Origin: a virus
Taxonomy: Duplodnaviria > Heunggongvirae > Uroviricota > Caudoviricetes
IMG/VR virus record: IMGVR_UViG_2565956720_000001
Strand: one strand, 5' to 3'
DNA length: 22,730 nt
A model generated the notes under the pieces. It saw only the letters and a program-made list of their open reading frames with translations, searched no databases and had not been told where the DNA came from. Both the position numbers and the translations under genes were made by a program. Below, one piece after another: positions 19,463-22,730 of the stretch (position 1 is its first letter; every line of letters starts with the position of its first letter).

Positions 19463-20938
19463 TTAAGCATAAGGGTCATAATCCGTTATGGCCCTTCCCT
19501 GCTGGCTTTGCTGTCCTGGTATATTTATGCGTTTCGAGACCGGGAACGCAAACGTCAGCAGTAGCGCATCGCCTTTACCAGGAGAACGCCCAAGTCGCTC
19601 TTTGATATCTTCCTTCGGTTCGATAACGATTTTACCGTCCACTCGAACTTTGTACTCTGCTGCCGACAGGTCGTCCGCTGTTTCCTGGTCATCAAGCATG
19701 CCGCCCAGCCTCAGCCATGTCTTGCATGAATTGAACATCTCCCCACGCTTGTTGAGCATCTGCGGGTCAGTAGACGCGCCACCGAACGGAACAAGTTGCC
19801 ATGTACGACCCCATCCGTCACCGATTGACTTCAGACCGGTTCCGTAACCGAAGTCGATGAACACCGCGTCAGCCTGATACTGGTCTTCAAAGTCAGCGAT
19901 ACGCTTCGCCATAATCAGATCGTCGGTAGTCTTGTTGCCAGTCCACAGCACCTTACTGTGTAGCCCCTGCCGCAGGTATATCACCGCGTCATCAACGCCT
20001 GAATATGCCGGGTCAACACCGATTATCACCGGAGCATGCGCCACCTGCGCAGCGGTTACCACCCGTTTCATTGCCTCATCAGTAAGACCGGTAGGGATAA
20101 ACTGCAATTCAGATGCATCAGGGAATATGCCGCGCACACGGATTTTAACGAAGTCGCTGTCTTCCCCGTAGTCATCAACCCATTTCTGCAACTGCTGTTT
20201 GTTAGTGCCTTCCACCGTTCGGCTGTCAATCTGCGCAGTTTTCCAGCGGTGTTTATATTTGCGGAAACATTCGCGAAAACGCCCGGTGTTACGTGTAGGG
20301 TTTCCGAACGCCACCCAGATAATCTCAGTGTCTTCGTCCGTAAGCGCACCCTCAGCAACTTCCCACACCAGATCCGCAATGTTCGACGCTTCATCGAATA
20401 CCACGATGATGCGTTTGCGCTCGTTGTGTAGTCCGGCGAATGCCTCAGTGTTGTGCTCAGACCAGGGTATTGCGTCAGCCCGCCACCGCTTGTCGTGCCC
20501 AGGGTCATTGCTGTACATCGCAGTAGCGGTACAGGTAAACCAGTCTTTCGTGATAGCAAGGTTCGACCACTTGATAATTTCCGGCCAGGTCTTCGTTCGT
20601 AGCTGGTTGTCGGTGTTGGCGGTCACCACGATCTTACAATCCTCGCAAGTGGACATGCCCCAGTTGATCAGCATTGAGATGAATGCGGATTTACCAATAC
20701 CGTGACCAGAAGCGCGTGCCAGCATAAGCGGCTGATAGCGCGTCTCTGGATTCTGCAGGTGATCACGTATCTCTCGGAACGCATCAGCCTGCCACTGACG
20801 TGGGCCGGTAGCATGTGCCAGTTCAGTCCCCTCTTCCCCCCACGGGAACGCATAGAGGGCATAGCCAAGCGGATCGTGAGTGAACCCTGCAATATCCTCG
20901 ATCAACTGCTCTTCAGGAGATAACGCTGTATCTGTCAC
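19463..20938 (-). CDS. Terminase large subunit (491 aa)
   Basis: Long ORF directly after the small-subunit gene, with GTG start overlapping its stop (GTGA). Size and neighbourhood are typical of terminase large subunits; no motif was verified by search. Confidence 0.85.
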   Translation of the reverse strand: MTDTALSPEEQLIEDIAGFTHDPLGYALYAFPWGEEGTELAHATGPRQWQADAFREIRDHLQNPETRYQPLMLARASGHGIGKSAFISMLINWGMSTCEDCKIVVTANTDNQLRTKTWPEIIKWSNLAITKDWFTCTATAMYSNDPGHDKRWRADAIPWSEHNTEAFAGLHNERKRIIVVFDEASNIADLVWEVAEGALTDEDTEIIWVAFGNPTRNTGRFRECFRKYKHRWKTAQIDSRTVEGTNKQQLQKWVDDYGEDSDFVKIRVRGIFPDASELQFIPTGLTDEAMKRVVTAAQVAHAPVIIGVDPAYSGVDDAVIYLRQGLHSKVLWTGNKTTDDLIMAKRIADFEDQYQADAVFIDFGYGTGLKSIGDGWGRTWQLVPFGGASTDPQMLNKRGEMFNSCKTWLRLGGMLDDQETADDLSAAEYKVRVDGKIVIEPKEDIKERLGRSPGKGDALLLTFAFPVSKRINIPGQQSQQGRAITDYDPYA

Positions 20939-21531
20939 TGATTACCATCCTGACGTTCTTTGAGTCGCTTCCTGGCTGCCGCTATGCGATCAGCAATTGT
21001 CACATTCACATTAACATCCAGGCGTTCTTTGAATGCGTTGACGTCGACGTGCTTACCAATCAGTTCGAGGTTCTTCACCTTGTCAGGCCATTTAATTTTT
21101 TTGAGGATTGTCTCTATCGAATCCTCGTTCATGTTCATGATGGTCGATGACAGATCAAAGCCACTAAGCGTAGTGCGCCAGATTTTCGGCCACTCGCGGA
21201 TTGGCTTAAGGCTCCCATCGTCGTTGAGGATATCAATCACGTCCATCTGGTCGATCTCCACCAGGCGCATGAGAACGTAATCGGCACTGACGCGCATTCG
21301 TTTGTTGCGCTCCTCCATCAACTCGGCAATCCGTTTTTGAATGCGTTCATCGCGCATCATGACACTGGCTTTAACTGCCGCTGTATTTGGGGAGAATCCT
21401 GCGTTAATCGCTGCCTGAGTCTGGTTTTCAGGCGTTTTGATGTATGACTGGCAATAAGCCTCCTGCATTGCGGTTAGTGGCTTAAATTGCGTTGATTTGC
21501 GTTTATAGGTTTTAGGTTCAGCAGGCATCAT
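20935..21531 (-). CDS. Terminase small subunit (about 198 aa)
   Basis: Start placed at ATG 21531 (tandem ATG ATG preceded by AGGGTGG). The track's longer ORF begins with TTG at 21609 and would include a terminator hairpin. Basic, helical N-terminus; immediately precedes and overlaps the large subunit gene. Confidence 0.75.
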   Translation of the reverse strand: MMPAEPKTYKRKSTQFKPLTAMQEAYCQSYIKTPENQTQAAINAGFSPNTAAVKASVMMRDERIQKRIAELMEERNKRMRVSADYVLMRLVEIDQMDVIDILNDDGSLKPIREWPKIWRTTLSGFDLSSTIMNMNEDSIETILKKIKWPDKVKNLELIGKHVDVNAFKERLDVNVNVTIADRIAAARKRLKERQDGNQ

Positions 21532-21548
21532 AACCACCCTGGTAATTG

Positions 21549-21563
21549 TTACCGTTGTGGTAA
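21549..21563. promoter_or_regulatory. Palindrome TTACC-N5-GGTAA (copy 3), with an extra GGTAA half-site at 21541-21545, just upstream of the small terminase start
   Basis: GGTAA (21541-21545), ttg, TTACC (21549-21553), gttgt, GGTAA (21559-21563); 18 bp from the terS ATG. Could be an operator or a terminase-recognition element. Confidence 0.4.
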
Positions 21564-21573
21564 TAGTACCATG

Positions 21574-21600
21574 CAAAATAAAGCCGCCATAGTTGGCGGC
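21574..21600 (-). terminator. Intrinsic terminator between the accessory operon and the terminase genes (minus strand)
   Basis: On the minus strand: GCCGCC-AACTAT-GGCGGC hairpin followed by TTTATTTTG. Confidence 0.45.
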
Positions 21601-21641
21601 AGTATTCAAAACCCATCAAATTCATCATGCATAATCTACTC

Positions 21642-21653
21642 GTGACATGTCAC
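21642..21653. repeat. 12-bp perfect palindrome GTGACATGTCAC, copy 3
   Basis: Exact copy overlapping the TGA stop of the 21650..21988 ORF, about 40 bp upstream of a terminator hairpin on the minus strand. Confidence 0.8.
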
Positions 21654-21988
21654 ACTATTAATTTAGTTTCATGCCAGCCTTTAGTCACCCAGCATTGCGA
21701 GTCACCATTACACGGGCATGAATTAACGGGAACTTTCTCGCCGCACTTACCGCAACGTTTTCTGCTAATCGATTTTATACGCCCGCGCACGCGTGCATCA
21801 TCCTGGCGGATCAGTAACGCTATATACTCCCCAAATTCGTAAGGCGCACGCCCGGGGCGACGCGTGGCACAGTTACGCTCCAGCATTTCCTGCTCCTGCT
21901 TATCCAGCACCAGTTCAATTTTGCGCTCACCGGCGGCGGACTGCCGAGCGCGCTGCGCGGCTTTGCGTTCTGCGGGGGATTTAGCCAC
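21650..21988 (-). CDS. Hypothetical protein with a C-terminal Cys cluster (CGKCG…CPCNG), putative zinc ribbon
   Basis: Start uncertain: GTG 21988 (GGAG 8 nt upstream), GTG 21997 (track) or ATG 21886 (AGGAG 6 nt upstream). No family recognised. Confidence 0.55.
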   Translation of the reverse strand: MAKSPAERKAAQRARQSAAGERKIELVLDKQEQEMLERNCATRRPGRAPYEFGEYIALLIRQDDARVRGRIKSISRKRCGKCGEKVPVNSCPCNGDSQCWVTKGWHETKLIV

Positions 21989-22103
21989 GAATCGCACTCC
22001 ACGCCAGATTGATTAATGACTCCCAGGTAATATAAACCCGGATACCAGCAGCCAGGCCGAAACCAATCACCATGGCATAAAGCAGAGCGTTGCACTTGTT
22101 CAT
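21981..22103 (-). CDS. Unlisted 39-codon ORF encoding a single-TM peptide (MNKCNALLYAMVIGFGLAAGIRVYITWESLINLAWSAIRG)
   Basis: ATG 22103 overlaps the TGA of the upstream gene (ATGA) and is preceded by AGGAGGTGA 4 nt upstream; hydrophobic core flanked by Lys/Arg and Trp; below the 60-aa cutoff of the ORF track. Confidence 0.45.
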   Translation of the reverse strand: MNKCNALLYAMVIGFGLAAGIRVYITWESLINLAWSAIRG

Positions 22104-22399
22104 CACTTCACCTCCTGCGGAGTAGCCTTTACAAGCACTGGTGTAAATCCATCTTCATTAAGGTTATGAATATAGACTTCCGTTCTCCTGCGCTCTTCAG
22201 CGTTTAATATGGTTTCTGGATCATAAACCCATACTTTCATTCGACTATTCCATGAAGAAATCGCTTCAGATTTAGTTCGTTTTTCTGGTCCTTGGGCACC
22301 ACATTTGCATGACACATAGCGCATTTTCCCTCTGATACTGAATGAGTATCCGATGTTAAGCACAGTGGAACCACAGAATGGGCAGCGATATAGATTCAT
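22103..22399 (-). CDS. Lar-family (restriction alleviation, RalR-like) zinc-ribbon protein (98 aa)
   Basis: ATG 22399 with AAGGTGG 7 nt upstream. CPFCG…CKCG…EAISSWNSR matches the remembered Rac prophage Lar/RalR pattern (KPCPFCG…C-x-GC…EALERWNKR). Confidence 0.65.
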   Translation of the reverse strand: MNLYRCPFCGSTVLNIGYSFSIRGKMRYVSCKCGAQGPEKRTKSEAISSWNSRMKVWVYDPETILNAEERRRTEVYIHNLNEDGFTPVLVKATPQEVK

Positions 22400-22668
22400 A
22401 AATCATCCACCTTAGGCGCAACTGAGACAGCAACATTCCAGAACTCAGAAAACATATTGTATGCACCAGATAGATTGGAAGTGGCATACCCTCCAAGCTC
22501 ACTTCTAATCTGAACGGCTCTCATCATTTCCGGTGTTAACTCCTTCGGCACCATAACCCAACCATCCGGAGTTACCGGAGAGTTGCCAGCCAGTCTACGC
22601 AAAACAGTCTTAACCGCCTCAATACGGTCATCATCGCAACTTTCCAGCGTATCTATGCGATCGAGCAT
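22396..22668 (-). CDS. Hypothetical phage protein (90 aa from ATG 22668; may extend 5' beyond the window)
   Basis: Its TGA overlaps the downstream ATG (ATGA). No ribosome-binding site precedes ATG 22668, and the frame stays open to the window edge (…AESNRGNEWTGNPDIDNAII-MLDRIDTLES…), so the true start may lie outside. Confidence 0.6.
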   Translation of the reverse strand: MLDRIDTLESCDDDRIEAVKTVLRRLAGNSPVTPDGWVMVPKELTPEMMRAVQIRSELGGYATSNLSGAYNMFSEFWNVAVSVAPKVDDL

Positions 22669-22730
22669 GATGATGGCGTTATCAATATCAGGATTGCCGG
22701 TCCACTCATTACCGCGATTGGATTCGGCAG

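Follow-up and report, generated by a model that had tools for sequence, protein, structure and literature searches.

Does a 40-codon open reading frame (ORF) that a gene list passes over, lying among the accessory genes of a prophage, encode a protein, and what might that protein do? We examined this question in a 22,730 nt DNA from a tailed virus (Caudoviricetes; IMG/VR record IMGVR_UViG_2565956720_000001), hereafter the window, which is the structural half of an epsilon15/phiV10/TL-2011b-like (Uetakevirus-type) prophage and is 97.4% identical to TL-2011b over 92% of the window length. An earlier note, made from the letters alone, had marked an unlisted 39-codon ORF on the minus strand, from an ATG at 22103 to a TAA at 21981, as encoding a peptide with a single transmembrane (TM) segment. 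Strand and coordinates are correct, the ORF has 40 sense codons plus the TAA rather than 39, and it is indeed unlisted, due only to the 60-aa cutoff of the ORF track. Its translation is MNKCNALLYAMVIGFGLAAGIRVYITWESLINLAWSAIRG. Judged by the way its sequence has evolved, the small ORF is a real, conserved coding prophage gene, and its product is very probably a genuine small membrane protein. The ORF and its ribosome-binding site are located as follows.

21981..22103, minus strand: small ORF, ATG at 22103-22101 and TAA at 21983-21981, 40 sense codons and a stop
22108..22116, minus strand: Shine-Dalgarno (SD) sequence AGGAGGTGA, core AGGAGG at 22111-22116, inside the last codons of the upstream gene (encoding PQEVK and the stop)

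The strong ribosome-binding site claimed for this ORF is present as a perfect 9 nt SD sequence, separated from the ATG by a 4 nt spacer, or by 7 nt when counted from the AGGAGG core. AGGAGGTGA is complementary to nine bases at the 3′ end of 16S rRNA, the anti-SD sequence. As the 22.7-kb window contains AGGAGGT just two times, a count not above chance expectation, it is the placement of the SD that matters and not its number. The SD is kept as GGAGG in nearly all of 68 related viral loci, regardless of the upstream gene. Some PGAP annotations begin the ORF at GTG 22106 and give a 41-aa version (WP_257156568.1); we rejected this start because the codon is GTA, ATG or GGG in relatives, where the ATG at 22103 is conserved. 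An alternative 91-aa ORF in another frame (21820-22095) was also rejected, since off-frame dN/dS (the ratio of nonsynonymous to synonymous substitution) is at least 1.

The length of the ORF is not significant by itself, as 37 ORFs of at least 20 aa are found in 3.2 kb, and the case for a gene therefore rests on conservation. All 40 residues of the product align with the 40 positions of the hidden Markov model of PHROG 5525 (E 7.6e-30). The reading frame in relatives, on which the earlier note had made its claim depend, is intact in all 80 of 80 full-length copies, that is, the collected loci having the N-terminal motif, with either 40 or 45 codons. Pooled Nei-Gojobori dN/dS was 0.16 in the 40-codon group and 0.13 in the 45-codon group, against 1.0-3.6 in the other two frames, and the variable sites are biased to the third codon position (21/12/31 and 14/8/34 at the three positions). 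Homologues at 50-65% identity retain frame, length and motif. In IMG/VR we found 68 loci, including 45-codon variants at 55-65% identity, and a word-indexed search gave 42 clusters at 90% identity in Escherichia, Klebsiella and Citrobacter. The full ORF is present in 160 of 5426 complete E. coli genomes (~3%). In most loci, the small ORF directly precedes and overlaps a 112-aa PHROG 536 gene, which in the window is arranged as follows.

21650..21988, minus strand: downstream gene of 112 aa, PHROG 536, annotated 'transcriptional regulator', epsilon15 p49-like, with a conserved Cys cluster
21981..21988, minus strand: 8 nt overlap GTGGCTAA, with the small-ORF stop within codons 2-3 of the downstream gene

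This arrangement raises the question of whether the peptide itself, or something else encoded in the same letters, is under selection. The locus might not be a gene at all, its conservation reflecting a DNA or RNA element or recent common ancestry. Such an explanation would suit the many nearly identical copies, and also a ~100 nt island, made of the 3′ half of the ORF and the first 12 regulator codons, that persists in remnants of the locus. It is scarcely credible in view of the divergent homologues and the third-position bias described above. Moreover, the two halves of the ORF have similar synonymous diversity (pS 0.47 and 0.37) and low pN/pS (0.28 and 0.22), giving no sign of an overlapping nucleotide-level element. 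An Rfam search of 21500-22730 returned only a sub-threshold rseX match in the spacer between the regulator and the small terminase gene (terS), with no relevant family at E<=1. RNA folding at the two gene junctions revealed no special structure either (z +0.87 at the small-ORF start and -0.81 at the regulator start).

Alternatively, the ORF could be a translated leader only, from which ribosomes reinitiate on the overlapping GTG of the regulator while the peptide has no function. The 8 nt stop/start overlap is conserved at all Uetakevirus-type loci, the regulator starts at a weak GTG with only GGAG upstream, and the minimum free energy (MFE) fold pairs the regulator start region, all of which would fit a leader. 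A hairpin sequestering the regulator start, as drawn from this MFE fold, was dropped because its 3′ arm changes without compensation among 31 distinct relatives, and the fold itself is unexceptional (z -0.8). In other phages, it is an unrelated gene (ASCH or DUF2591) that is coupled to this regulator start. Purifying selection acts at the amino acid level, and it does so where there is little left to lead into: where the regulator is cut to 12-46 codons or absent, as in about 10 viral loci and in lambdoid prophages that are widespread in Klebsiella, the small ORF and its SD are intact, and pN/pS among the lambdoid-context copies with a truncated regulator is 0.24. Since the ORF is kept and selected beside a truncated regulator, and since a homologue in P1-like phage-plasmids stands alone, the product appears to matter; the substitution patterns argue that the peptide itself is selected and not merely the act of translating it. 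We therefore regard the leader as far-fetched.

The peptide can be divided into the following parts.

22023..22088, minus strand: hydrophobic putative TM segment, codons 6-27 (hydropathy, AlphaFold2 helix, family alignment)
22044..22064, minus strand: GFGxxAG motif, codons 14-20, with G14, A19 and G20 invariant and F15 and G16 nearly so
21987..22022, minus strand: amphipathic C-terminal helix ESLINLAWSAIR, codons 28-39 (hydrophobic moment 0.57 at residues 29-39)

The single hydrophobic helix foreseen in the earlier note agrees with the Kyte-Doolittle profile, whose 19-residue maximum is 1.85 at residues 7-25, and with an AlphaFold2 model from a 20-sequence alignment, which predicts one continuous helix at residues 3-39 (predicted local distance difference test, pLDDT, 91). 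K3, L7, Y9, M11, G14, A19, G20, W27 and W35 are invariant. Position 22 is conserved as polar (R, replaced by H or Q in distant branches), with an aromatic belt of Y24 and W27 after it. The glycine codons of GFGxxAG vary synonymously. Small-residue faces are generally associated with the packing of TM helices against one another, and the GFGxxAG face would be suited to such packing. We rejected a lipoprotein, as the sole Cys (C4) precedes the hydrophobic segment and is V, S, L or R in relatives.

Several observations weigh against a bitopic protein that acts in this way. The uninterrupted hydrophobic run spans just 16 residues (A6-I21) before the conserved R/H/Q, a small number for a TM helix and one that would also suit a cleavable signal peptide. 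The charges of K3 and R22 balance, so that the topology cannot be called from charge. The family is narrow, with 19 hits among 1.84 billion representatives in an exhaustive profile search, and thus no function can be transferred from any characterised relative. Finally, 35 E. coli genomes keep just the 3′ half of the ORF, indicating that the gene is dispensable.

The short hydrophobic run leads to the first of two other accounts of the product, in which residues 1-20 are a cleavable Sec-type signal peptide (n-region MNK, h-region ALLYAMVIGFGL, c-region AAG) and the 20-residue amphipathic, Trp-rich IRVYITWESLINLAWSAIRG is freed to the periplasm. The pattern K3 / A6-L17 / A18-A19-G20 fits by eye; the -1 residue (G20) is invariant and the family restricts the -3 residue to A, V, S or T, in line with the -3/-1 rule, and conservation is slightly higher in the C-terminal than in the N-terminal half (pN 0.080 vs 0.132). 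However, G14, F15 and G16 are invariant or nearly so inside the h-region, where pN/pS is 0.28, which would be unusual for a disposable signal peptide. The basic R22 at +2 disfavours export, and AlphaFold2 models one continuous helix across the proposed cleavage site. We consider a released peptide very improbable.

The other account has the peptide permeabilise the membrane by oligomerising into pores or lesions, as a toxin, a viroporin-like depolariser or a holin/antiholin-type timer, and it takes up the suggestion of the earlier note that the ORF resembles small membrane toxins or holin-like proteins. The type I toxins TisB, HokB, DinQ, IbsC, ShoB and ZorO are likewise small hydrophobic or amphipathic single-helix peptides of <60 aa that depolarise the membrane (PMC12648545), and the product of the small ORF is of this size with one predicted TM helix. 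Its small residues are glycine-zipper-like, and a narrow polar stripe runs along the 37-residue helix through residues 22, 26, 29, 32, 36 and 39. The locus is unlike that of a type I toxin, in which an antisense RNA accompanies repressed translation. A consensus scan of 21300-22730, which may miss a weak promoter, found no promoter-like site on the opposite strand, and no known RNA is present; the SD is exposed rather than sequestered and translationally coupled through a 1 nt overlap, in a local fold no more stable than shuffled sequences. No holin or toxin family was matched in Pfam, NCBIfam or PADLOC, with no Pfam holin at E<=1, and the only significant PHROGs match is 5525, which is in the unknown-function category. 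With phage holins and pinholins the peptide shares a small phage-encoded membrane helix, but it has one short helix and no adjoining endolysin or spanin gene, and its tail after W27, charged only at E28 and R39, appears amphipathic, where holins typically have a highly charged one. Among the loci examined, the gene is always in early/accessory blocks and never in a lysis cassette: in the window and its Uetakevirus relatives it lies between the accessory genes and the regulator and terS, and the Klebsiella lambdoid relatives carry a separate holin-lysozyme-spanin (Rz) cassette 4-5 kb downstream. This placement, with a separate holin cassette elsewhere, points to an early accessory gene and not a member of the lysis cassette. 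As family matches, gene context and type I locus architecture all speak against it, the toxin or holin-like reading is not supported, and we judge a permeabilising peptide to be unlikely, although overexpression might still harm the membrane.

We propose instead, with rather better than even confidence in the statement taken as a whole, that the small ORF is a real gene for a 40-residue single-helix (bitopic) inner-membrane protein acting by helix packing. The SD of the gene is embedded in the (P)PQEVK-stop tail of whichever gene precedes it, and temperate enterobacterial phages swap the cassette by recombination. The gene would be transcribed with the early/accessory genes (Ea22-like, Lar-like, peptide, regulator) and translated efficiently from its perfect SD, in coupling with both neighbouring genes. 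The helix would then insert in the host inner membrane, where the GFGxxAG face and the amphipathic tail with its interfacial Trp might pack against the peptide itself or against a host or phage membrane protein. Such packing may alter a membrane function during early lytic development, and the peptide would not serve as the holin of the phage. That the mechanism is specific partner packing and non-lytic is a tentative proposal, to which we give somewhat less than even weight.

Small single-TM proteins that act by binding larger membrane proteins have precedents (reviewed in PMC12648545). Like the peptide with its predicted helix, the partner-binding proteins of enterobacteria of the MgrB-PhoQ type have fewer than 50 aa, one TM helix and no catalytic domain (PMC12648545), and the packing of the helix against a larger membrane protein would be a further likeness, which we suggest by analogy. 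In contrast, there is no sequence relation to the MgrB/AcrZ type, whose members are chromosomal stress-regulated genes whereas the gene described here belongs to a phage-borne early operon; homology to a characterised member was not seen in Pfam, NCBIfam or the PDB. It is more doubtful still, and in our estimate quite unlikely, that the peptide is a dedicated early effector that binds a specific host inner-membrane protein via the GFGxxAG face. The target of such an effector might be a transporter or receptor that competing phages use, a component of the divisome, or a defence effector anchored in the membrane. If this were true, the effector would provide exclusion, anti-defence or lysis-lysogeny control, and its persistent linkage to a DUF551-type gene across three unrelated phage types would mark a functional pair.

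The gene is unsurprising as such, since temperate phages often carry short hydrophobic hypothetical genes in their accessory regions. It is nonetheless a common gene under clear purifying selection with no assigned function, which makes it a clean and cheap candidate for functional testing, and it belongs to a class, the small membrane proteins of phages, that is routinely hidden by annotation pipelines and ORF-length cutoffs. The locus also shows how one sequence, CCGCAGGAGGT (PQEV), can be a recombination boundary and at the same time provide the ribosome-binding site for the cassette that follows.

The feature is not new, having been annotated before as a hypothetical protein, and PHROG 5525 is uncharacterised. 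The protein is catalogued as RefSeq WP_001030561.1 and UniProt A0A0D0LT16, and the gene is an annotated coding sequence in the phages EC.W1-9 (WYA78225.1) and phiv142-3 (Orf32, QGF19637.1) and in RefSeq E. coli genomes. These entries are 97.5-100% identical to the small-ORF protein and of the same length. An identical protein is found on at least 1000 contigs of a 15-billion-protein collection, always as 'hypothetical protein'. In EC.W1-9 and phiv142-3, the gene occupies the same slot just before the PHROG 536 regulator and terS, but the upstream neighbour differs from the Lar-like gene of the window. The profile search of 1.84 billion representatives revealed no larger family, only the family itself and low-complexity or fusion hits, and shows the family to be restricted to phages of enterobacteria. 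The one Pfam match, to DUF2109 (E 0.03), was sub-threshold, as were the only NCBIfam matches, CydH/YnhF on relatives, and a PDB profile search gave nothing meaningful; three family members had no match to the PADLOC defence models at E<=1. A literature search with peptide substrings and the RefSeq accessions found neither in any paper of the searchable library.

The stand-alone homologues form a sister branch, MSKVNVLIFSAIVGFGFTAGVQIYIAWEKIINYAWSCFIK, in the accessory region of P1-like phage-plasmids near upfN, and are present in 225 PLSDB plasmids. SJ46 gp090 (YP_009293547.1) and its P1-like relatives are 40 aa long and ~50% identical to the peptide, with the pattern MSK...VGFGxxAG...YIxWExxINxAW in common. 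The SJ46 gp090 branch is likewise downstream of a DUF551-type gene ending in PEPPQEV (PEPPQEVNQ), but differs in having its own intergenic spacers and no downstream regulator, with Gln at position 22 and Val at position 4. Most plasmid gene tables give no gene at the place of this homologue, and the name 'membrane protein insertase Oxa1/YidC/SpoIIIJ', given by one source to a P1-like member, was probably assigned automatically and in error.

We next describe the unit in which the gene is exchanged and the genes that share its slot upstream of the PHROG 536 gene.

21988..22120, minus strand: exchangeable cassette (SD tail and small ORF), delimited by homology breakpoints, with the 3′ boundary at ~21953 in lambdoid contexts
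Slot in this window, EC.W1-9 and phiv142-3: the peptide
Slot in phiV10: ASCH-domain gene
Slot in TL-2011b: DUF2591/NinX gene

The cassette is hosted by epsilon15/phiV10-like prophages, Klebsiella lambdoid prophages and P1-like phage-plasmids. Its 5′ boundary lies within the (P)PQEVK-stop tail of the upstream gene, which encodes the SD and terminates at least 10 unrelated upstream proteins. The upstream genes are mostly of the DUF551 type; this portable domain forms the C-terminus of Ea22 variants, of YfdS and of a dATP/dGTP pyrophosphohydrolase (PMC10834534). The sequence CCGCAGGAGGT(G/T)AA, at 22107-22120 on the minus strand of the window, encodes PQEV and is both a module recombination junction and the SD of the next gene, and the PQEV-encoding motif is found at the ends of Lar-like, DUF551-type and several unrelated accessory genes. 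Sequence identity indicates that a Lar-like module has been joined in the window at the shared CCGCAGGAGGT. A search of 5,426 complete E. coli genomes and 50,697 phage records did not reveal this junction between the Lar-like gene and the small ORF. In relatives of the lambdoid type, the gene comes last in the accessory block behind the replication genes, and a terminator-like hairpin lies after it.

The remnants, present in the 35 E. coli genomes and in at least five protein clusters, correspond to 21953-22044 of the window and contain the ORF from codon 17-21 behind varied upstream sequences. The three remnant junctions that were sequenced lie within ~10 nt, and the local GCTGCTGG is one mismatch from Chi (GCTGGTGG). 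The remnant breakpoints coincide with the hypothetical signal-peptidase site.

Upstream of the small ORF, the chain continues with two genes.

22103..22399, minus strand: Lar-like restriction-alleviation gene, 98 aa (Pfam Lar_restr_allev, E 7.5e-9), whose stop overlaps the small-ORF ATG (TGATG)
22396..22730, minus strand: Ead/Ea22-like gene, 3′ part, running off the window, whose stop overlaps the Lar-like ATG (ATGA)

The Lar-like gene is 98.8% identical in DNA to Sf6 genes 20/21. The four genes are, as proposed earlier, chained by overlapping stops and starts (ATGA, TGATG and GTGGCTAA), with two corrections to the junctions. The 4 nt ATGA overlap that had been placed at the small-ORF start is at 22396-22399, between the Ea22-like and Lar-like genes, and the actual junction at the small-ORF start is the 1 nt TGATG. 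Such a 1 nt overlap is present at 69 of 79 loci, with at least 10 unrelated upstream genes. The overlap of the TAA with the GTG of the next gene stands and measures 8 nt, but the GTG is that at 21988 and not that at 21997 given by the ORF lister. Annotation of relatives starts the downstream gene at GTG 21988, and the start at 21988 is favoured because divergent relatives have an ATG at exactly this position. In all relatives, the stop/start overlap takes the form (G/A)TG(G/C)CTAA.

The PHROG 536 gene (21650-21988, minus strand) is the conserved core gene of this position, with 726 protein clusters and occurrence in ~659 E. coli genomes. In its product, Cys79-x2-Cys82 ... Cys91-x-Cys93 is invariant and Cys99 nearly so, and the N-terminus is basic. 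The product has no match in Pfam, NCBIfam or the PDB, its AlphaFold2 model is poor (pLDDT 52), and 'transcriptional regulator' appears to be an annotation label only. The spacer that separates it from the small terminase gene holds one further element.

21583..21600, minus strand: terminator-like hairpin GCCGCCAACTATGGCGGC followed by TTTATTTT (T-run), between the regulator and small terminase genes

The annotation of phiV10 has a terminator at the corresponding position, and a weak promoter-like site is also located between the regulator and small terminase genes (21583-21661, minus strand). A regulator before a terminator that precedes late genes recalls the Q-like antitermination layout, a comparison that is pure speculation. 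The annotated start of the small terminase gene (20935-21609, minus strand) varies among near-identical relatives, in 594-, 675- and 711-nt versions. As the TTG at 21609 chosen by the ORF lister falls in the terminator hairpin region, the shorter ATG near 21531-21528 may be the real start.

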